Of a DNA stretch of 64,000 nucleotides, positions 519 through 14,279 are shown in pieces. Numbering within the stretch: the stretch's first letter is position 1; each line of letters begins with the position of its first letter. The notes under the pieces were generated by a model. That model did no database searches. It had not been told where the DNA came from and was given only the letters and a program-made list of their open reading frames with translations. This DNA is from Candidatus Woesearchaeota archaeon (GTDB taxonomy: Archaea > Nanobdellota > Nanobdellia > SCGC-AAA011-G17 > JACPIM01), in NCBI GenBank assembly GCA_016188045.1, contig JACPIM010000002.1, positions 108,737 through 172,736 on the forward strand, in the 5' to 3' direction. Made by a program: the position numbers and the translations under genes.

Positions 519-3029
519 ATGTCTAAATCGCTTAAACTATTTTTGATAATATTCCTAATAGTTATATTTAATTCATTATTAGTCCTGGCCACAAAAGACC
601 CAATAGTAAATATTAGTTTAACAAAAACCGAATATGTCCAAAAAGACAAATTAATAGGAGATATAGTATTAACTTTCACAGATGAAGTGGAAGATAAAGA
701 ATTAGAAATAAGATTTGGGCAAAATTCAGATATAACCCCTTTATCCCAGATTCTTACCATCTTGGGCGAAAATTATGAAACAACACCAGGTAAAAAAGAA
801 TTAGTTCCATTGCAGCAACCAGATGATTCCATAACATTTCCTCCTTTAGTTCAAGAACTTGGAATTTCAGTTCCAAAAAATGCAGAAGACATTACAGCAG
901 TTGGAAACATTGGTGGCTGGGAATCCTTAGGTTCAGTTCCCAAATTTCCTTATTTAGATGTTGCCGGAGATGGTTTGATTGAGTGGTCTTACTTAGGTGA
1001 TTTATTAGGTTGGTCAAACATTATAAATTCAAATGACCTAGGAAGCGAAGCAGGTTTTGTCGATATACAAAATAAAGATGTTTTAGTATGCCAAAAGATC
1101 ACTTTAACTTCAAAAGTAAAAGCAGTTAATATTACAGCAAATTTTAAAGAGGTTTCATCAGGAGCAAAAGTTAAAGCCAGGTTATTAACAATGCCAGACA
1201 ATTCAAAAAAATCTTTTGGATCTTCAGATTGTGAGTTAAAAAAAGATAGCTATCAAACAAACCCTTATGGAAATTGTGTTATTACATTTGATGAAATTCC
1301 TAAAGTTAGGCAGGGAGATTATTTAGTTTGTATATTCCCAGAAGTTAGTGAGCCTACAACTACAACCACGACTCCAACTACAATTACTTTTTTTAAAATA
1401 GCAAAAGACAATAGGCAAACACAAAAATCTTATATTTGCACCCACAAACCAGAAGGTTATTCAGAATGCAATACAAATAATAATTATAATCACATAATCA
1501 AAGTGTCATTACCTATTTATAATGGTTCTTTAGATAGCAGCAGTATTCCGTTTAGCGAAGGAATTACAGAAGCAAACCTGAATAAAAGTATAAAAAATTA
1601 TCTTTCCTCTTCAGCTTGCCAGGATGATGACACAAGATGCATAGTTCCAATTGAAGTTGGTTCACAAACACCAGGAAGGTTATTTTTCAATGGATTCTCA
1701 ATAAAAATAAGGCGGCAAGGCATAGCAGAAGAAGCTTTAATGCAAAAATTAAGAAGCTTGTCTGACACAATAACAAAGATAGATTCAAAAAGCCTATCAA
1801 ATAACGAAGTAAAAGTTTCCATTCCAATAAGGAGCTTTTATAATTTCACAACACCACAAGTTACAACTTTACAAACCATTCCTTTAGAAGTCCGTTACGG
1901 TTCCTCCAGGGCAGTAGAACTAATAGAAATTTCTCCGTCATTATTAACAGGAAAAAAAGAGGTTAATACAACTATCTCAGAAACTTTAGATTTACTAGAT
2001 TCATATTCAAATACAGAGACAAAAGATTTGCTAAATAAAGTTAATATAAATATAGATTCATTAAAAACACAATTTTTAGCAATAAGAACAAGATTAAACA
2101 CAATAGAATCAAACAGCACAAAAACCCAGGTAGAAAAAGACAGGGAAAAACTAACCATATTAAGTGAAGTTGAAAATTTAAAAAAATCAGTTCCTCGCTA
2201 TTTTTATTTAGGTGATAAAGCATTCAACTTGCCTTCAATACCCCCATCTCAGACAGATATAAGTTCTTCTATATTAGGAAATCAAGCTTCAGATAATATA
2301 AAGGAATACATCTTAAGTTTACAAAGGTCAATATCAGTTTCATCAAATGCCAAGGCCTTTTCATTAAAAACATTTGGAAATCAATCTCATGATTACACAA
2401 TGATCACAAGAGTAGTTGCTGGAGCTCCAAGTGATGCTTTTATAGTTGATTTTATTCCGAAAGCAATAGCACAATCTTCTGTAGATTTAGTCCTAGATCA
2501 GTCTATAGAAATTTTAGAATCTGATCCAATAATAAAAAAACAATTATCTTCAGGTTCTGGAACCTTTTCTTACATGGCGAAAGGGAATATAATAGACCAA
2601 ATAACAGATATTAACACCCTGGTTGTTAGTTTAGCCAATGCTCCTTCAGGAACTCCAACAAGATCTGCTTCATACACAAATGTCGAATGTGGCAATAATA
2701 TTTGTGATGTTCCGTTGGAAGATGAAAAAGTATGCCCAGAAGACTGCAAGCCAAAAAGAAACTGGACTTTAATTATAATAGCGTTAGCTGTTTTTGTTTT
2801 GGGCGTTTTTTATATTAACTTTTACAAAGGCCCGGGAAACATTCAAAAATTCCTTACTCAGGTAAAAGAAAGATTATTTCATGTAGAATCAGATAAAGCT
2901 AATTTAATTAATTACATCAAAAGAGCAGCAAAACATAAATCAAAAACAGAAATTGTAAATATTTTGTTTTCAAAAGGATGGACTAGAGAGCAGATAGAAG
3001 AAGCATTCAAAGAAGCATTGAAAAAATGA
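519..3029 (+). CDS. Large secreted, C-terminally membrane-anchored surface protein
   Basis: Signal peptide, poly-Thr linker, CGNNICD...CPEDC box before a C-terminal TM helix, short cytoplasmic tail. Confidence 0.75.
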   Translation: MSKSLKLFLIIFLIVIFNSLLVLATKDPIVNISLTKTEYVQKDKLIGDIVLTFTDEVEDKELEIRFGQNSDITPLSQILTILGENYETTPGKKELVPLQQPDDSITFPPLVQELGISVPKNAEDITAVGNIGGWESLGSVPKFPYLDVAGDGLIEWSYLGDLLGWSNIINSNDLGSEAGFVDIQNKDVLVCQKITLTSKVKAVNITANFKEVSSGAKVKARLLTMPDNSKKSFGSSDCELKKDSYQTNPYGNCVITFDEIPKVRQGDYLVCIFPEVSEPTTTTTTPTTITFFKIAKDNRQTQKSYICTHKPEGYSECNTNNNYNHIIKVSLPIYNGSLDSSSIPFSEGITEANLNKSIKNYLSSSACQDDDTRCIVPIEVGSQTPGRLFFNGFSIKIRRQGIAEEALMQKLRSLSDTITKIDSKSLSNNEVKVSIPIRSFYNFTTPQVTTLQTIPLEVRYGSSRAVELIEISPSLLTGKKEVNTTISETLDLLDSYSNTETKDLLNKVNINIDSLKTQFLAIRTRLNTIESNSTKTQVEKDREKLTILSEVENLKKSVPRYFYLGDKAFNLPSIPPSQTDISSSILGNQASDNIKEYILSLQRSISVSSNAKAFSLKTFGNQSHDYTMITRVVAGAPSDAFIVDFIPKAIAQSSVDLVLDQSIEILESDPIIKKQLSSGSGTFSYMAKGNIIDQITDINTLVVSLANAPSGTPTRSASYTNVECGNNICDVPLEDEKVCPEDCKPKRNWTLIIIALAVFVLGVFYINFYKGPGNIQKFLTQVKERLFHVESDKANLINYIKRAAKHKSKTEIVNILFSKGWTREQIEEAFKEALKK

Positions 3030-4726
3030 GACTAAAAATTTTAATATTATTTTTATTAATAATTAATATAGCAAGCGTTAGTGCTCTTTTAACAGTTCCT
3101 TTTAAACCGTGCAGCGAATCCTATTACAAACAATTATGGGAAACAATACTTAAAGAGCCATACGATACAATAAAGCCAGCAATTTATCATGAAGGACCAG
3201 ATATAAATGGAAACTGTTCAAATTTCGATCTTAGTTTAGTTAAATCAACTTCAAACTATAAAGAAGTTTATTTTTTATTAGTAACAATCTCAAATGCAGA
3301 TGAAAAAAGATTAATAGCTGGAAATTTCCAGATTTCAGATCCAGAAAATGAATGGATTTTACCAACTGATTTTCAACAAAGATATTATACCTATTTTTTG
3401 CCAGGATTTGATATAAGAGACAGAACTACAGTATTAACAACAAAAGAAGATGCAAAGATAGAGCATGAAAGATATCTAAAAGGTTTAACAAATTTAAATC
3501 AATGGATCGTTCCTTCAGGATTGGCAGGGGATTTTACTTATGAAGATATTTTACTTCAAAATCAAATTGAAAAAAGAGAAAGAGTTGAAATCGACAAAAG
3601 ACAAAGATATTTAATTTACAAATACTCAGAATCAAACCTTGCTTCAGACACATCAACAACTACATCTTCCTCTACCTCATCAACATCAGCAGTAATATGT
3701 TCTAAAGGAGAAATAAGAAGTTGTCCCTTGCCTGGCATATGTTCTTTAGGTTCACAAACATGTATTAACAATTATTGGTCAGATTGTTCAATAGGCCCAA
3801 GAAAAGAAACCTGTTTTGATAAACTAGACAATAACTGTGATGGTATAGTGGATGAAAATTGCATATGTAAGGAAGGTTCAACTAAGTCCTGCGGTCCAGG
3901 AATTGGAATTTGTAACCAAGGAACACAAATATGTGCAAATGGAACCTGGTCTCAATGCCAAAACACAATCCAGCCATTAAATGAATCCTGCTCAAACCTA
4001 TTAGATGATGATTGTGATGGTCTAATAGATATACTAGACCCAGATTGTAAACAGCCACCAGTTATTAATCTATGTAATAATAATAAAACAGATTTTGATG
4101 AAACCGGCATTGACTGTGGTGGTTCTTGTTCTCCTTGTTATTCATGTACAGATGGAAAATTAAATCAGGGGGAAACAAAAGTTAATGTTGTAATAGATGC
4201 AACAGGCAAAAAATCAGATTGCGGAGGTTCAAATTGTCCTGCTTGTCCAACTTGTAATGATAACATAAAAAATCAAGATGAGCTAGGTGTAGATTGTGGT
4301 GGCTCTTGTTCAAAAAGTTGTGATGAGTTAAAGGATTCTGATGGTGATGGTGTAACAGACGCTCGCGAATTATCAATAGGAACAGATCCAAGTTTAATGG
4401 ATACAGATAATGACGGTCTTGATGACTTGCAGGATACAATGCCTCTTTGTCCAAATAAGCAATGCAATACAAATTTCAGGGAAGATCCAGATACCTGTCC
4501 GCAAGATTGTAGTTCAATACCAGTTTTTCCAATAATAGTAGTATTTTTTATATTTATTCCAGGAATAGGTTTATTATTATACTTTTTAATCAAAAGACAA
4601 AATAAAACAAAAAAGCAACAAGGACAACAAGTTTTTAAAATACATCCTTCTTTTCTAAAATCTCAGGAAAGAAAAACAAGAGCGGATAAAGTAACAGAAG
4701 AACTTAAAAAGATTAAAGGGAATTGA
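3026..4726 (+). CDS. Cys-rich surface protein with DNNCDG/DCGG and Ca-binding DxDxDG repeats
   Basis: Signal peptide; ETCFDKLDNNCDG, ETGIDCGG, DSDGDG and DTDNDG repeats; CPQDC box then TM; ATGA overlap with the upstream gene. Confidence 0.8.
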   Translation: MRLKILILFLLIINIASVSALLTVPFKPCSESYYKQLWETILKEPYDTIKPAIYHEGPDINGNCSNFDLSLVKSTSNYKEVYFLLVTISNADEKRLIAGNFQISDPENEWILPTDFQQRYYTYFLPGFDIRDRTTVLTTKEDAKIEHERYLKGLTNLNQWIVPSGLAGDFTYEDILLQNQIEKRERVEIDKRQRYLIYKYSESNLASDTSTTTSSSTSSTSAVICSKGEIRSCPLPGICSLGSQTCINNYWSDCSIGPRKETCFDKLDNNCDGIVDENCICKEGSTKSCGPGIGICNQGTQICANGTWSQCQNTIQPLNESCSNLLDDDCDGLIDILDPDCKQPPVINLCNNNKTDFDETGIDCGGSCSPCYSCTDGKLNQGETKVNVVIDATGKKSDCGGSNCPACPTCNDNIKNQDELGVDCGGSCSKSCDELKDSDGDGVTDARELSIGTDPSLMDTDNDGLDDLQDTMPLCPNKQCNTNFREDPDTCPQDCSSIPVFPIIVVFFIFIPGIGLLLYFLIKRQNKTKKQQGQQVFKIHPSFLKSQERKTRADKVTEELKKIKGN

Positions 4727-4746
4727 TAAGAACCGTAGGTGCTTAT
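4725..4746 (+). repeat. GNA-triloop hairpin repeat copy (ATAAGAACC-GTA-GGTGCTTAT)
   Basis: Imperfect stem preceded by ATTG; resembles copies at 5169, 5265, 8403 and 10282. Confidence 0.55.
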
Positions 4747-4990
4747 GATGGCAGAAGAAAAAATTGATATACTAGAAGGAGCAATTAAAATAGAATTAAA
4801 AGCAGGAAGAAAATGTAGTTTTTGTACTTGTGGGCATAGTAAGAAAATACCCTATTGTGATGATTCTCATAAAAAAATAAATGAGGAACAAGGAACTAGC
4901 TATAAACCATTTAAGATAATACCAGAAAAAGATTGCACCCTCTGTGTTTCTTCAAGCAATTGGCCAAATCAAAAAAATAAAAGTTTATAA
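4739..4990 (+). CDS. CDGSH-type [2Fe-2S] domain protein
   Basis: CTCGHSKKIPYCDDSH motif; the true start may be one of the downstream ATGs. Confidence 0.85.
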   Translation: MLMMAEEKIDILEGAIKIELKAGRKCSFCTCGHSKKIPYCDDSHKKINEEQGTSYKPFKIIPEKDCTLCVSSSNWPNQKNKSL

Positions 4991-5017
4991 ACTAATTTTC
5001 TAAGGATTATTCTTAAT

Positions 5018-5110
5018 GCGCCGATAGTTTAGTGGTTAGAATCTCGGCCTTCCAAGCCGATGACCTGAGAAACAGTATACTGTTCAGGATTTCAAATCTC
5101 AGTCGGCGCA
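5018..5110 (+). tRNA. tRNA-Gly(TCC) with a 21-nt intron at position 53/54 (5070-5090)
   Basis: Acceptor stem GCGCCGA/TCGGCGC, anticodon loop CTTCCAA, T-stem CTGAG/CTCAG; intron forms a BHB with central helix CCTG/CAGG. Confidence 0.93.
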
Positions 5111-5131
5111 GATTCTATTAAAATTAAAAAA

Positions 5132-5305
5132 CGGGCCTGATCGGACTTTCATTAAGTCTTGCAGGTTGATAAGGATGCAATCCTTATTTTTGAACCGACA
5201 ACCCCAAGCTAAATCCTAGGATTAGGACGCTTGTGCTCTATTTACTTAATAAGTTTGCAGGTTGATAAGGATGCAATCCTTATTTCCAAGTTGAGCTACA
5301 GGCCC
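5132..5305 (-). tRNA. tRNA-Arg(CCT) with three introns: 19/20 (5242-5285, 44 nt), 37/38 (5211-5222, 12 nt) and 59/60 (5146-5188, 43 nt)
   Basis: Removing the three segments gives a 75-nt cloverleaf GGGCCTG...GGATAGAGC...GTCCTAA...TTCAAAT...CAGGCCCG; each junction has a BHB-like 4-bp helix (ACTT/AAGT, GTCC/GGAT, TTCA/TGAA); A20 fits Arg identity. Confidence 0.88.
5159..5285 (+). repeat. Identical 31-bp direct repeat (5159-5189 and 5255-5285) forming the cores of two tRNA introns
   Basis: TTGCAGGTTGATAAGGATGCAATCCTTATTT occurs twice. Confidence 0.95.
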
Positions 5306-5338
5306 ATAAAGTATATCTTTTTATTTTTATATATAAAA

Positions 5339-7117
5339 CTATAGGTTGCGGAGCTTTTGTAAATAAGGAATTAGAAATCTGCTCCAAGTTTCATATTTTT
5401 TAGTATAATCTGGATCGCCAACCAAGTCAGGAATAGCAATCATTTTCCCAGAAACAATTGAGGCCTCTTTTGGCCTTACAGTCCCATTAGTATGCATAGT
5501 AAAAACCAATCCAAAATGAACTGTATCAACTTCTTTATCATAAGCCATAAGAGTTCCAACTAATTTTGATCTAGTAATCTCACCCAGCATTTCAACCTCT
5601 TCCTCCATAACTTCTCTTTCTAAACATCTTTCAACATATCTTGGACCATCAGCTTTGATGATATGACCACCAGGACCTACAGAATGTTTTCCAAATAACC
5701 TTTCATCACCATAATCCTTGATATCTTTTGATCTAACATACGAAAATACATTTCCATTAGAATCAAATATTACAATATAAGGGATTGGTTGCAATACTTC
5801 AGTATCAAATTCACAATCATATCTAGATTGAAAAAATCCATCTTCTATATCTTTATTTAATCTCTTAGCCTCTTCTTCTGTTATAAACTCAAGACCTTCT
5901 TTAGTTCTTCTATGCTCCATTAAAATTCTGGCATCCTGCACTAATACCATTCTATCAAGTTTTTTATAATTTTTAGCAGCAAAAGCAAAATCAAATCGCC
6001 TAAAATGTTTTGAAGGTCTTGAACCAACCTGGTCCTGGTAATGAGAACCTATATCTACCCCATAAAACTTATCTGGCATTCCAGTTCTAAAAATATCTAA
6101 TTTACTAATAGGCATACCATCTTGTATTTCAATATTAGACAACTCGTCTGATCTCACTTCATAGACGAGAGCACCAAAAAAACGATTATCCACATAGCCC
6201 GAGAGGTGTAATGGCCCGGTAAAACCCACATGAGAATGGCTTTTTAGTTCCATATTAAGATGATCTGGTACTTTTATAACTTCCCTAGATGAAAGCAAAT
6301 AGTGTTCTGATCTGTTAATCATAATTTTACTACCTTTCAAAGGTTCAAAAAAATCTTCCGCCTTGTACTCTCCTTCCTTACTTAAGTCAATTGGTGTTGG
6401 GTTATGCCTAGCTCTAAGTCCGGTAATACCCCAGGTATGTTTTCCCTGCAAGTCAACATGAACTAAAACCGTATCAGTTATAATAGGTTCAACCGGTACC
6501 AATTCATCCTTTTCTTCTACAAATAAGAAGGGGTTTATCTTAAATTCTTCAACTATCTCAGCTGAAGTTAATTGTGAACAAGAACCAATATGAAATCTCA
6601 ATTGATTTAATGAAATACCAGGATATAATATAAGATTAAACGCTAAAGGTTGCAATAGTAACCAAAGCATTAATTCAGAATCAGATTTATACTGAGAATT
6701 TATCTCATCAAAAGAAGGATTATAATCGGCAAGCAGTCTCGTATTTAAGAATAATCTACCCAAACTGCTTTTTGGTGAAGATTTTATATACTCACTAGCA
6801 CTAAGAACAACTCTCTCTTCTAAAGGAACTAAATAAGAATAACCTCTTTTTATCTCAAAACCACCACTAATTTTAACTTTGGGTCTTTGTCCGCCAGGAA
6901 GTTGTAGAAGAGTTCTACGAACGGTTTCATTTATTTGTGGCCTAAATAACCAATTAGTTTCGGTTAGAATATATAACTCATCACTAACAACAGGATCAAA
7001 TGAAGAAGGTTGAATTCTAGATTCATCGACTCTAGGAGTAACTATTCTTTTATTAATAATCCGATCTCTAATATCTTGCGATGGCAAACAAAAACCCATT
7101 TTATTATCCAAAGACAT
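5339..7117 (-). CDS. dcd: dCTP deaminase (dUTPase-fold, duplicated-domain type) fused to a C-terminal NUDIX-like domain
   Basis: IQPSSFD, SPKSSLGRL and GYVDNRFFG motifs; C-terminal LQPIPY...GGHI...LEREVMEE...VHFG resembles COG4112 NUDIX proteins. Confidence 0.8.
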   Translation of the reverse strand: MSLDNKMGFCLPSQDIRDRIINKRIVTPRVDESRIQPSSFDPVVSDELYILTETNWLFRPQINETVRRTLLQLPGGQRPKVKISGGFEIKRGYSYLVPLEERVVLSASEYIKSSPKSSLGRLFLNTRLLADYNPSFDEINSQYKSDSELMLWLLLQPLAFNLILYPGISLNQLRFHIGSCSQLTSAEIVEEFKINPFLFVEEKDELVPVEPIITDTVLVHVDLQGKHTWGITGLRARHNPTPIDLSKEGEYKAEDFFEPLKGSKIMINRSEHYLLSSREVIKVPDHLNMELKSHSHVGFTGPLHLSGYVDNRFFGALVYEVRSDELSNIEIQDGMPISKLDIFRTGMPDKFYGVDIGSHYQDQVGSRPSKHFRRFDFAFAAKNYKKLDRMVLVQDARILMEHRRTKEGLEFITEEEAKRLNKDIEDGFFQSRYDCEFDTEVLQPIPYIVIFDSNGNVFSYVRSKDIKDYGDERLFGKHSVGPGGHIIKADGPRYVERCLEREVMEEEVEMLGEITRSKLVGTLMAYDKEVDTVHFGLVFTMHTNGTVRPKEASIVSGKMIAIPDLVGDPDYTKKYETWSRFLIPYLQKLRNL

Positions 7118-7153
7118 ATTAGACCAAACTTTACTATCATTGTTTAAATAGAT

Positions 7154-7200
7154 TTATGTTTGCAAAAGTTATATTCTTAATATAATAATTAAAATTGCAG
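7154..7200 (+). repeat. 47-bp direct repeat, copy 1 (flanks the fic gene)
   Basis: 43/47 identical to 8420-8466. Confidence 0.85.
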
Positions 7201-7306
7201 CTTAACCTTTCACCTAATAATACTCAAAATCCCATACATTGATACTTAGAGTTAATTAATCATATGCGTAACTCAAATATCAACGTTATTACTTTTCAAT
7301 ATGAAT

Positions 7307-7411
7307 ATGGGCACATAATAAATTTTATAAAACTTGTGCCCACATAATATCAGCTTCTTAATAACACAACTATATGGGCACAAATAGATATATTTATAAA
7401 TATGTGCCCAT
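7307..7411. promoter_or_regulatory. Two tandem inverted-repeat units TGGGCACA-N19/20-TGTGCCCA, each bracketing a TTTATAAA TATA-like box
   Basis: Half-sites at 7307-7315, 7335-7342, 7374-7382 and 7403-7411, upstream of fic. Confidence 0.65.
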
Positions 7412-7421
7412 ACTAATAATT

Positions 7422-8348
7422 ATGGTATATCACGAAATTAGGGTTGTAAAAGGAAAGAAGCAAAATTACTTAGTTTATAATAGAAGAAAAAATGGAAAAT
7501 GGCTCAAGAAGAGTAGATTTATTGGAACAGGCAACATACCGCAACAAGAAATAAAAAGATTAAAAGAAGAATTTGAAATTAAAACAATAGCAAGCTACCA
7601 ATTTGATTATCTTAGTAAAGAGCAGGTTTTAGAAATAGAAAAGCTAAAACAAGAGTATAACAAAAAAATAAGTTCTTTAACTAAAGAGGAATTTGAACAA
7701 TTTGAAACCTCTTTTTTTACAGAATTAACTTATAACAGCAATGCAATTGAAGGCAGTTCTTTATCTTTGCAAGAAACATCATTAGTGATTAATGAAAATC
7801 TCGTGCCGGAAGGAAAAACATTAAGAGAGATATATGAAGCAAAAAACCACAGAAAAGCGTTAGATTTCATTAAGGAATATAGCGGGGAGTTAAGCGAAGA
7901 ATTTATACTAAAACTTCATGCCATTGTTCTAAGGGATATTTCTGAAAGATTTGCTGGAAGATATAGGGAAACTACCGTAAGGATTTTTGGAAGTGATGTT
8001 AAATTTCCTGATTCGGCAGTTGTTCCCCAACTAGTCAAGAATTTAGTCTATTGGTATAACAAAAATAAAAAGAGATATCATCCATTTGAAATGGCGGCAA
8101 TATTCTCTATGAAACTTGTTTCAATACATCCATTTGTAGATGGTAATGGAAGGATTTCAAGGTTGGTTATGAACTTTATCTTAAAAAAGAGGAGATATCC
8201 ATGGATTAATATTTATAATAAGCAGAGGGCAGAGTATCTTAAAGCAGTAAGAAAAGCAAACAATGAAGAGTACAAAGAAATATTATCTTTTTTAATCAAA
8301 AGTTTGAAAGAAAATTTGAAAGATCTTGGGATCACAACAGATCTCTAA
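7422..8348 (+). CDS. Fic-family AMP-transferase (class II, with N-terminal inhibitory motif)
   Basis: HPFVDGNGRISR catalytic motif and SNAIEG inhibitory motif; start placed downstream of the TATA box. Confidence 0.9.
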   Translation: MVYHEIRVVKGKKQNYLVYNRRKNGKWLKKSRFIGTGNIPQQEIKRLKEEFEIKTIASYQFDYLSKEQVLEIEKLKQEYNKKISSLTKEEFEQFETSFFTELTYNSNAIEGSSLSLQETSLVINENLVPEGKTLREIYEAKNHRKALDFIKEYSGELSEEFILKLHAIVLRDISERFAGRYRETTVRIFGSDVKFPDSAVVPQLVKNLVYWYNKNKKRYHPFEMAAIFSMKLVSIHPFVDGNGRISRLVMNFILKKRRYPWINIYNKQRAEYLKAVRKANNEEYKEILSFLIKSLKENLKDLGITTDL

Positions 8349-8402
8349 ATCCATAGCCCCTAGTTTTATTATTGTTATCTAAGAAGGTTCATTAGGAAGA
8401 TG

Positions 8403-8423
8403 ATAGGAAACGTAGTTTCTTAT
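8403..8423 (+). repeat. GNA-triloop hairpin repeat copy (ATAGGAAAC-GTA-GTTTCTTAT)
   Basis: 9-bp stem with one G-T pair, preceded by GGAAGATG. Confidence 0.7.
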
Positions 8424-8466
8424 GTTTGCAAAAATTATATTCTTAATATAACAATCAAAATTACAG
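8420..8466 (+). repeat. 47-bp direct repeat, copy 2
   Basis: 43/47 identical to 7154-7200. Confidence 0.85.
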
Positions 8467-8467
8467 A

Positions 8468-10243
8468 TTAACTCATCAACTCAATTTTCTTTCCAGAATG
8501 TAATGCGTCCAATATCTTTCTTCCAACCTGGCTTTCTTTATGTATCTTAATTTCTCCTTTCCTGCTTGAATAAGCAGTCAATAATAGTTTACCAGATATT
8601 AGTACCTGTACTTCTCTCCCAGGTTCTATAAAAAACCTAATAACTTTTTTATCTTCACCTATCTTAAAATTAATCTCCCTTTTCTCTTCTTTCAACTCTT
8701 TAATCTCTATGCTAATTCCTAAATCTTTCTCAATTTGAGATATTACTTTGCCGTCTTTTCCGATTATTCTTGCAATATCTCTTTCAGGAACTTGAACTAC
8801 AACTCGGTTGTTACTAACAATATCTACATTACATTCCTTGCAATATTTTTTAAATTCCCTTTCAATAGCAACTCTAGCTAAATTTTTAACGCTATCTTTA
8901 GAAACAGTTTCTCCAACAGGAATAACAACTGTTTGCTCTCCATAACTGTAGATCTCATATTCAAGTTTTTCATTTTCAAAATCCCTTACTTCAACAACAG
9001 GTCTGGCTAAATCACTCTCAGTCATTCCAGTAGGAACTTTAACAACCATCTTTAATCCTAAAACCTTTCCTATGCTACCCTTCTCAACAAACAAGATAGT
9101 ATCAACAACACTAGGTATCATTCCAACTTCTAATCTTGAAATAAATCTCTGAACAGCATCTATCGGACTACTTGAGTGAACTACCCCAATACACTCAGCT
9201 CCTGCAAGTCTTAAATCGCTATACAACTCAAAATCAGGAGTGTCTCTCATTTCATCAAAAATGATGTTATCTGGTCTGCTTAAAAATAAAATATCATGAA
9301 TTTCTTCACTAGATGTAAAATTCTTGCTATATTGTGTTATCTCATCCGGTACTTGTAGATCTCTAGGACTTTCAACGGTTTTTATAATCTTGCCTTGCTT
9401 CAAATAAAACTCAGCTAAAGCCTGTACGAAAGTTGATTTACCACTGCCGGGCTCTCCAGCAACAATTATTCCTCTGGATTTTTCCTTTATTCTTTCAAAT
9501 AATTTTTCCTTCAGATGATATTCTTCTAATCTTAATTTCTTTAATGGTTTAACAACAGTTATTTCCCAACCATCTGAAACAGGCGGTCTTACAATAACAA
9601 TTCTATAGTTGTTACATTGTACTATGGTGCTGCCTCTCCTGGAAATTTCAATAAAAGTCTTGGGATCTATTCTAGATTTTTCAATTATCTCTTTGGACAT
9701 TCCTTCTATTTCTTTAGAAGTCAATCTTGTATCATTAACTTTAGTTAGTTCCCATTCACCAGGCTTTCCTTTTTTGGCATAGCAAAAACTATCCTCTTTT
9801 AAGTGGATGCTCATGGTTTTATCATCAAAGAATTTTTCAAACTCTAATTTTTCTTTAATTTCCTTTTTCTCTAGGTAAATAACATCCAATCCAAAAGCTT
9901 TGGCAGATTCAGCTTGGACTTTATCACCAGTAATTAACTTTGCTTTTTCTTTGTAGGCAATTTCCCTTATAAAAGCATCAATCTCTCCTGATTTAGCAAA
10001 CTTAATCTGTTGCTCATTCGGTCTTGCACCAATAAACTCTAGTTTGATTTTCTTTAGTTTTCTTATTTCCTGAATCTCTTCTAAACCCAAAAAACCAATT
10101 TCTAATCCTTTATTTGCCTGATTTTCTAATTCAGCTATTACAGCATTGGGAATTAACACAGTTCCCTCTATTTTTTTCTCACTAGATAATCTAGTAACTG
10201 CCTTCTCTATTACAGCAGACGTATCTACAACATATTTCATCAT
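8468..10243 (-). CDS. PINA ATPase (PIN, P-loop ATPase and KH domains; COG1855)
   Basis: N-terminal VVDTSAVI PIN motif, GEPGSGKST Walker A, C-terminal IIGKDG KH motif. Confidence 0.92.
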   Translation of the reverse strand: MMKYVVDTSAVIEKAVTRLSSEKKIEGTVLIPNAVIAELENQANKGLEIGFLGLEEIQEIRKLKKIKLEFIGARPNEQQIKFAKSGEIDAFIREIAYKEKAKLITGDKVQAESAKAFGLDVIYLEKKEIKEKLEFEKFFDDKTMSIHLKEDSFCYAKKGKPGEWELTKVNDTRLTSKEIEGMSKEIIEKSRIDPKTFIEISRRGSTIVQCNNYRIVIVRPPVSDGWEITVVKPLKKLRLEEYHLKEKLFERIKEKSRGIIVAGEPGSGKSTFVQALAEFYLKQGKIIKTVESPRDLQVPDEITQYSKNFTSSEEIHDILFLSRPDNIIFDEMRDTPDFELYSDLRLAGAECIGVVHSSSPIDAVQRFISRLEVGMIPSVVDTILFVEKGSIGKVLGLKMVVKVPTGMTESDLARPVVEVRDFENEKLEYEIYSYGEQTVVIPVGETVSKDSVKNLARVAIEREFKKYCKECNVDIVSNNRVVVQVPERDIARIIGKDGKVISQIEKDLGISIEIKELKEEKREINFKIGEDKKVIRFFIEPGREVQVLISGKLLLTAYSSRKGEIKIHKESQVGRKILDALHSGKKIELMS

Positions 10244-10281
10244 TTTTTCTCCATTAGCTTTCTGCCCATTAAAGGAAGTTG

Positions 10282-10302
10282 ATAAGAAACGCAGTTTCTT
10301 AT
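10282..10302 (+). repeat. GNA-triloop hairpin repeat copy (ATAAGAAAC-GCA-GTTTCTTAT)
   Basis: Perfect 9-bp stem preceded by GGAAGTTG. Confidence 0.75.
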
Positions 10303-13998: not shown

Positions 13999-14012
13999 TT
14001 CTTATGAATATT

Positions 14013-14176
14013 TGCGGGGAACAGGATTCGAATTCGCAACCCTTTTCCGTGAACGCTTTTCCTAAAAGGGTTCCTGCGTAGGCACTAAGCCAATACGTCT
14101 TGAGCGTATCCCGTCAAGTCGATTCTTTCCGAGGTTTCTTCCTAAGAAAGCTCTTTGACCACTCCGGCATCCCCGC
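14013..14176 (-). tRNA. tRNA-Leu(CAA) with two 40-nt introns (D-loop 14115-14154; position 53/54 14033-14072)
   Basis: GCGGGGA/TCCCCGC acceptor stem, CTCAAGA anticodon loop, long variable arm; BHB helices GGTC/GACT and CGCA/TGCG. Confidence 0.92.
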
Positions 14177-14279
14177 ATATAAGGAATTATTCCTTATCAA
14201 CCATAAATAAGTAAGAAAACCTTTATAAATCTTACAATGCAAAAAAGCAAGTAATAGAAAATAGTTATTGGGGGGACAA

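Follow-up and report, generated by a model that had tools for sequence, protein, structure and literature searches.

A dispersed thirty-nucleotide hairpin module at gene junctions and in tRNA introns of a Woesearchaeota archaeon, with apparent exchange of subtypes at the same sites

A 64,000-nt stretch of DNA from a Candidatus Woesearchaeota archaeon (assembly GCA_016188045.1, contig JACPIM010000002.1, positions 108,737 to 172,736; the whole stretch is called the window below) contains six copies of a ~30-nt module in which a purine-rich foot precedes a short hairpin. An earlier note had read five of these as a mobile hairpin resembling repetitive extragenic palindromic (REP) elements, moved by an HUH enzyme and able to create tRNA introns through an insertion that itself forms the bulge-helix-bulge (BHB) splice motif. 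That interpretation is partly supported: the dispersal, the variable presence and the link to tRNA introns are borne out, while the HUH mechanism and the self-made BHB are not. In its behaviour the family resembles a small DNA module, selfish or replaceable, of the kind represented by REPs and Rickettsia palindromic elements (RPEs). Comparison of close relatives shows gains, losses and tandem stacking of the module as well as substitution of one subtype for another at precisely one site. Its B subtypes form the conserved core of BHB introns in the T- and D-loops of many tRNAs across the order, where the 5′ arm of the hairpin is able to pair anew with another CUUA(U), located in the intron tail, and so form the inner helix. 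Its A subtypes are found at gene junctions, mostly in sense orientation and just before a Shine-Dalgarno (SD) box. We give roughly even chances to the reading that this is an exchangeable module, spread and overwritten by templated copying, which is cargo and scaffold of existing introns. What is distinctive here is the repeated exchange of subtypes at one site together with the role as core of a widespread T-/D-loop intron family.

The source genome consists of 1,021,983 bases in 24 contigs, with ~30% G+C and a completeness of 92.55%. The earlier pattern has exactly five plus-strand matches in the window, at 4724-4746, 5167-5187, 5263-5283, 8401-8423 and 10280-10302 (copies 1 to 5), which confirms the copies at the positions first reported; shuffled windows had a mean of 0.01 matches, and none of 100 reached five or more. 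Since the pattern had been derived from these same copies, making this test post hoc, the whole genome was tested as well, and the strict pattern has 19 matches there. Under a looser rule (at most one mismatch in 12 fixed letters, inner stem of at least 3 bp) the genome gave 70 strand hits, compared with 2 in a reversed-sequence decoy and 5-9 in five mononucleotide shuffles, and the further copies thus stand well above background. Perfect palindromes score on both strands, so that the 70 strand hits correspond to ~50 loci. For the genome scan that had been proposed, two covariance models were built from length-homogeneous subsets (A type and B type), a MAFFT alignment of all subtypes having been rejected as non-structural. 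At E<0.01 these find 36 full-length A-type and 14 B-type copies in the source genome, and ~12 half copies (3′ arm and foot) lie near full copies. The family is thus real, and its description as scattered mini-palindromes of REP-like form with a fixed foot is supported; we take the copies to be small non-autonomous DNA modules of ~30 nt.

The unit is a foot (A-GG-RR-G-W-TG) followed by a perfect hairpin of 7-9 bp. Alignment of 50 copies on the hairpin gives A, G, G, R, R, G, T/A, T and G at positions -9 to -1, with A/T and nearly no G or C upstream of the foot and nothing fixed downstream of the hairpin apart from a preference for purines at +4 to +7. Within the foot, TG occurs in 38 of 38 aligned copies, and the five pairs of the outer stem (ATAAG/CTTAT) are invariant. 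The subtypes are discrete and are set by inner stem and loop: A1 (GAAAC/GTTTC, loop GYA), A2 (GAACC/GGTTC, four-letter loops), A3 (GAACC/GGTGC, one mismatch), B1 (GGAT/ATCC, loop GNA), B2 (GGGT/ACCC, loop TTTA) and a few others. The GNA triloop claimed for the family holds for A1, A3 and B1 and fails for the other subtypes, which have CTTG, TTTA or TAA loops. In the window, copy 1 (4714-4746, plus strand) is of subtype A3, with its foot at 4714-4725, its hairpin at 4726-4746 and one A.G mismatch. Copies 2 (5157-5187) and 3 (5253-5283) are B1, and copies 4 (8391-8423, plus strand, with one G.U pair) and 5 (10270-10302, plus strand) are A1. Copy 6, additional to the five noted before, is of B type with a TAA loop and is located on the minus strand at 14177-14209. 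As single-stranded DNA, all six fold into the hairpin described, with energies of -2.8 to -5.7 kcal/mol and z-scores of -2.3 to -5.0.

The compensatory stem changes noticed earlier are real, 3 of 8 pairs having changed on both sides. Pairing is kept in 99.6% of 278 cells, and the two-sided changes, all in inner pairs, amount to 34 cells, a number matched by none of 500 shuffles; the alignment behind these values (42 matches, 36 distinct rows) had been fitted to the model, its rows are repeats related to one another, and a palindrome in DNA mimics the signature of an RNA stem. No target duplication is apparent (whatever boundaries are chosen, the best 3-mer match is in 6 of 50 elements), and no inverted repeats other than the hairpin itself mark the termini. 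We assign the foot to the element because it varies by subtype, and on the same ground an SD box as target was rejected. Other candidates were discarded by eye: a promoter, because in copies that end 13-17 nt short of a start codon the GGAAG foot occupies the place where a TATA element would be expected, and a K-turn, a C/D box, attC core sites and dif-like sites, none of which fits.

Searches of published full text found no description of the family, and the IMG/VR viral contigs contain no match to the exact A1 or B1 cores. Among species genomes, the exact A1 core was found in only 2 other metagenome-assembled genomes, one from Woesearchaeota and one from Nanoarchaeota. Contigs from four public DNA runs were short and broken at the hairpins, and no strain-level filled or empty alleles were obtained from them.

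Comparison of orthologous sites used the nearest species genomes, all of the same genus (G001-G003; 68-91% identity over the tested stretches, mostly 77-86%), and the metagenome contig L134, which has 83% identity as a whole and shows no differences in part of the tRNA-Arg gene. Presence does vary between close relatives, as the earlier note had proposed to check, with empty, filled and swapped sites all being seen. The subtype was exchanged in place at five sites in the sample. At the site of copy 5, A1 here corresponds to A2 in G001 and a B1-like copy in G002, with no module in 6 more distant genomes. The T-loop intron of tRNA-Arg(CCU) contains B1 here and A2 in G001 and L134; the 52 nt between this and the D-loop intron (5189-5240) are identical to L134 at 52 of 52 positions. 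The site at C13:1771 (contig and position in the source genome, as below) has A2 here, A1 in G001 and nothing in G002, a tRNA leader copy on C24 is A1-like here and A2 in G002, and a tRNA intron at C13:52991 has B2 here and B1 in G001.

Other sites differ by presence. In place of the 30-nt module at copy 1, all three relatives with this site (G001, L133 and L134) have a 15-nt spacer with stop codon, SD and short gap; here, both a new stop and an SD-like box come from the A3 module. The copy at C13:5188 recurs in G003 and is absent from G001 and G002, G002 also lacks the three tandem units of C13:8075-8160, and a tandem pair upstream of an Sm-like gene (C24:65163-65228) is absent in both G001 and G002. 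A tRNA intron on C24 exists in G002 as the same intron without the 26-nt hairpin. Glutamyl-tRNA synthetase (GluRS) orthologues of 5 of 5 relatives do not contain the module, and its 27 nt here stand against 21 other nt in G003. Within a tRNA intron of relatives, loci L068 and L069 form a clean 25-nt filled/empty pair with GTTGA on both sides. Conservation at orthologous sites, which had been named as a sign of ordinary operators or terminators, was found for C24:64670 in G002, and most of the tested sites are empty in congeners.

A second small repeat with ..AAAGCGTT(G/C)ACGGAAA.. was seen in tRNA introns of relatives (L053, in the tRNA-Arg of G001, and L065, L077 and L087). The AAAGCGTT repeat is also in frame in the GluRS of G001 (L118), exactly where the source genome has a B2 hairpin, and a 37-nt example is nested in the B1 D-loop intron of L134.

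Both copies described earlier as bodies of tRNA-Arg introns do lie in introns, although within a single tRNA-Arg(CCU) gene on the minus strand (5132-5305) and not in two genes. Neither ARAGORN nor Rfam detects this gene in the raw window. Three introns are predicted on the same strand: a 43-nt T-loop intron (5146-5188) with copy 2 as its core, a 12-nt intron at the canonical anticodon-loop position (5210-5221) without a hairpin module, and a 45-nt D-loop intron (5241-5285) with copy 3 as its core. When all three are removed in silico, ARAGORN reports tRNA-Arg(cct) of 74 nt in 36 of 36 boundary variants, and in none when unspliced. As the gene is on the minus strand, its transcript carries the reverse complement of copies 2 and 3. 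The B1 cores of the two introns are identical over 31 nt.

The T-loop splice motif, as drawn by hand, comprises the T stem, a 3-nt bulge, UUCA:UGAA, a second 3-nt bulge and UAAG:CUUA. In this model the hairpin as such is not the BHB, because UGAA and CUUA lie in the 3′ tail of the intron and the module only supplies UAAG, its 5′ arm; the splice motif would be built by the site-specific tail and its pairing with the exon. Folding energies are -13.0 kcal/mol with the BHB enforced, -13.4 for the minimum free energy structure and -9.3 for the conformer keeping the module's own hairpin. The central helix covaries by eye, with T-loop UUCG and tail CGGA in genome G013 against UUCA and UGAA here, which supports it as part of the splice motif. 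That of the D-loop intron has 5-6 bp, and this motif is therefore relaxed. The proposal that the insertion itself forms a BHB is unsupported on two counts, namely that an extra exon-complementary tail is required and that the intron exists in G002 without the hairpin. For these reasons we regard the hairpin as exchangeable intron cargo rather than a demonstrated creator of introns.

The history of the D-loop intron bears on the same point. It is missing from the tRNA-Arg(CCU) of G001 and recurs, with 1 nt different, in the tRNA-Arg(UCU) of the source genome (C9:212291); it is also found in G013 and on contig C68 of G002, while the tRNA-Arg(UCU) genes of G001 and G002 are without it. L134 retains it with the nested 37-nt insertion, placed after window position 5256. 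The match to tRNA-Arg(UCU) fits transfer between isoacceptors rather than de novo landing, and the hairpin is not demonstrated as a source of new tRNA introns.

One EndA gene was detected (PF01974, C24:68968-69222), and its single catalytic domain in a 217-aa frame suggests a putative α4-type enzyme. In the accessible text of PMC5829648, α4 EndAs with an extra loop accompany disrupted tRNA genes in DPANN archaea. An RtcB domain (PF01139) is present in two pieces at C6:27952-29294; the pieces are separated by stop codons, and the insert contains no motifs of the hairpin family. Across the genome, at its 92.55% completeness, no more than 14 tRNAs are recognised by the Rfam tRNA model, from which heavily interrupted tRNA genes seem common here; most are probably interrupted beyond recognition by standard tools. 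The tRNA-Gly(UCC) gene (window 5018-5110, plus strand) illustrates how intron sets vary between close relatives: its 21-nt T-arm intron (5070-5090) is missing in L134, which has a 22-nt D-loop intron instead, and the gene in G001 has three introns (D-loop, anticodon loop and T arm).

The tie to tRNA introns is strong both here, where they hold 6 of 18 B-type and 2 of 36 A-type copies, and in relatives, with 19 of 22. The latter figure is from a survey of B1 in which twenty places were fetched and 19 loci gave 22 instances, classed by eye as 14 T-loop introns, 2 D-loop introns, 3 other tRNA positions and 3 outside tRNAs. All 6 tRNA-intron B-type copies of the source genome and 19 of the 19 tRNA-borne B1 copies in relatives share one orientation, hairpin-then-CAAC in tRNA sense. 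One A2 copy in a tRNA intron (C24:64495) is oppositely oriented. The B1 core shows 87-100% identity in genomes where genes match the window at 64-78%. Across 41 genomes, counting model matches at E<=0.001, the A type occurs in 13 (32 matches here, 5-15 in congeners), the B type in 12, either type in 16 and neither in 25.

Copies are by no means confined to tRNA introns; the following contexts were assigned by eye unless separately tested. Three copies lie 1 or 2 bases upstream of a tRNA 5′ end. The RNase P RNA (RF00373, 110.4 bits; C14:83132-83542, minus strand) has a copy in a 73-nt insertion after the conserved GAGGAAAGUCC, the insertion being an A2 hairpin plus a half copy. In-frame copies encode ..NKGKPLSTQ.. 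in a 751-aa PPDK-like protein and, from a B2 hairpin, ..DKGKPLSTQ.. in GluRS; a third protein with in-frame ..KGKPLST.. was read by eye. A-type copies between co-directional open reading frames (ORFs), as crudely called, are sense in 17 cases (4 of them adjoining tRNA or RNase P genes) and antisense in 4, and those in divergent spacers are sense to the nearer gene in 7 of 8. Their 3′ ends lie 13-17 nt before the start codon with an SD in between. B-type copies have no sense/antisense bias at gene junctions.

All three A3 copies (window 4714-4750, C6:64345-64379 and C17:40349-40383) share one setting, in which the upstream ORF stops at the TGA of the foot (in 2 of 3), the 3′ arm contains an SD-like GGTG and the hairpin is followed, one base on, by an ATG. 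Ribosomes that terminate upstream would unfold such a hairpin, and A3 could in this way be a ready-made junction for translational coupling.

As for how an exchangeable module might spread, templated copying between copies, by gene conversion or recombination, would both disperse the module and overwrite resident copies. The invariant foot and outer stem may guide this copying, perhaps after processing of the DNA hairpin, and the enzyme would be other than a Y1 HUH transposase. Whole introns may move between tRNA genes by way of the conserved flanks in the D and T arms. The module would survive where it is harmless, that is, spliced out, translated as a hydrophilic linker or lodged in leaders and spacers.

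Known systems share some of these features. REPs and REPINs are likewise ~30-nt palindromes with a fixed 5′ foot and many copies, often between genes of one operon and without target duplication. Here, in an archaeal host, there are direct tandems and half copies instead of inverted doublets, and no RAYT/Y1 gene; unlike extragenic REPs, the module is also found in frame in proteins, in RNase P RNA and in tRNA introns. The 5′ tetranucleotides of REPs are GTAG or CGTC, from which the letters of the present foot differ. The hairpin beside a short fixed sequence recalls the subterminal hairpins of IS200/IS605 ends, whose TnpA and TnpB have no counterpart here, and the small non-autonomous copies recall MITEs (miniature transposable elements with inverted repeats), from which the family differs by its lack of target duplication and of terminal inverted repeats beyond the hairpin. 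REPs, MITEs and RPEs are treated in PMC10969869; as far as the accessible part of that text goes, RPEs are a parallel in being palindromic repeats, with no known mover, that lie in frame in unrelated enzymes and encode a conserved peptide (here ..KGKPLST.. in 3 proteins). They are ~150 bp long, against ~30 nt in this archaeal host, and the GluRS module here replaces a stretch of similar length (the 27 versus 21 nt of G003) rather than simply adding to the gene. For introns, the portion available of 10.64898/2026.10.13.758758 cites Fujishima et al. 2010 for related BHB tRNA introns at non-canonical positions in Thermoproteales, read as 'intron transposition'. As in those introns, near-identical cores occur at the D-loop and T-loop and in different tRNA genes, are removable via a BHB-type motif and are gained and lost between relatives. 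Unlike them, the shared core here is a discrete 30-nt hairpin that also occurs where genes adjoin, within ORFs and inside RNase P RNA, its subtypes replace each other within one intron, and the lineage is of DPANN (Woesearchaeota-type) with one EndA gene.

Several points weigh against an exchangeable module spread by templated copying. The constrained orientation (the 19 plus 6 tRNA-borne B copies; 17 versus 4 for the A type) could indicate a role or a route at the RNA level, and the 87-100% conservation of the B1 core is explained equally well by selection for function as by recent spread. The A1 copy at C24:64670 is conserved in place, with the same subtype, in G002. No mobilising enzyme was found among the families searched, the conversion mechanism being only what we infer. 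The nearest comparison genomes are 77-91% identical, and flanks are identical only at the T-loop swap. The strict tRNA orientation, the sense bias at junctions and the B1 conservation together keep alive functional rivals at the RNA level and those invoking an RNA route. One of these is a host-functional motif, hairpin and foot being bound as RNA or DNA by a conserved host protein, so that selection keeps and recruits the hairpin for transcript processing, stabilisation, translational coupling or help in intron folding. The invariance of foot and outer stem across subtypes and genomes argues for it, as do the A-type ends 13-17 nt before start codons (SD between, mostly sense), the A3 arrangement of an SD-like box in the 3′ arm with the upstream stop at the hairpin base, which would allow coupling, the orthologous copy in G002, and a B1 core that is near-identical across families of the order and of single orientation in tRNAs. 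Such a motif would not be expected in frame in two enzymes, in RNase P RNA or in both orientations in tRNA introns; most tested sites are, moreover, empty in congeners, 25 of 41 relatives match neither model, and A-type copy number ranges from 5 to 32 within the genus. We consider this explanation rather unlikely.

An RNA-level mobile intron core, with the B-type module and its tail reverse-spliced by host EndA and RtcB into BHB-like sites and then copied to DNA, would account for the strict single orientation of B1 in tRNAs and for an intron that recurs at one T-loop position in many different tRNAs and whose tail, by eye, covaries with the T-loop; both EndA and RtcB are encoded, and the sense bias of A-type copies agrees with it. 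It appears improbable in view of the genome, which has no reverse transcriptase (PF00078) at its 92.55% completeness, of the reversed A2 copy at C24:64495, of copy 5, which is antisense to its nearest gene, and of copies that lie upstream of promoter-proximal regions or downstream of genes that converge. A related proposal, which we regard as a long shot, is that the B-type module and tail form a self-propagating BHB intron core using only host enzymes (EndA/RtcB or recombination) and that the A type represents domesticated stop-hairpin-SD coupling modules; if true, the B-type core would be a mobile intron lacking its own gene. The mechanism first proposed, a REP-like element moved by a RAYT/TnpA-type HUH enzyme whose landing itself folds into a spliceable BHB and so yields new tRNA introns, now seems very improbable. 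Its appeal came from the architecture of foot and hairpin, the GNA loops in A1, A3 and B1, a lack of target duplication as in REPs and IS200/IS605, and the L068/L069 pair with GTTGA on both sides. ISDra2 inserts 3′ of TTGAT, which we take to be the same letters as the module foot. No match to PF01797 (Y1_Tnp/HUH) was found in the source genome, as far as its completeness of 92.55% allows, and none to the TnpB domain PF07282. PF01797 is present in 12 of the 41 genomes, and these overlap with the 16 hairpin-bearing ones only in G007 and G008; it is thus absent from 14 of the 16 and present in 10 genomes without hairpins. The need for an exon-complementary tail and the hairpin-free intron of G002 speak against the remainder of the proposal.

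These observations bear on the arrival and turnover of tRNA introns in archaea. A model of intron gain through integrating elements is outlined in the accessible text of PMC3293823, and that of 10.64898/2026.10.13.758758 offers no general route. This lineage provides a recognisable 30-nt core of many T-loop and D-loop introns, with the same module also outside tRNAs. The module is swapped in one intron with identical neighbouring exon and anticodon-intron bases, and is present or absent in another shared intron; swapped and empty introns make concrete before/after pairs with which changes in intron content can be tested. An RPE-like element within proteins and RNase P RNA of a 1-Mb archaeal genome without a known transposase would likewise be a second case of selfish mini-palindromes in proteins.

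Among the window copies outside introns, copy 1 shares its TGA (4724-4726) with the stop codon of a 566-aa ORF (3026-4726); its 3′ arm contains an SD-like AGGTG, and the start of a zf-CDGSH gene is next, at 4745 or 4748. Copy 5 is situated between a conserved promoter-like box and the start of a PIN-ATPase-KH gene (8468-10243, minus strand), to which it is antisense. Copy 4 lies 52 nt past the stop of a Fic/DOC gene (PF02661, E 2e-21; 7374-8348), which is located in a ~1.27-kb stretch between direct repeats of ~50 nt (7155-7205 and 8424-8475). This stretch looks like an inserted cassette with copy 4 as its right edge; in G001, two contigs end at the repeat flanking Fic, and no Fic gene is found between the same neighbours. 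Copy 6 is followed, after 2 nt, by the 5′ end of a minus-strand tRNA gene of Ser/Leu type (window ~14000-14176), recognised by eye only. This gene has at least one insertion and was missed by ARAGORN and Rfam, and in contigs of other organisms 33-61 nt within 14092-14154 are replaced by different sequence.

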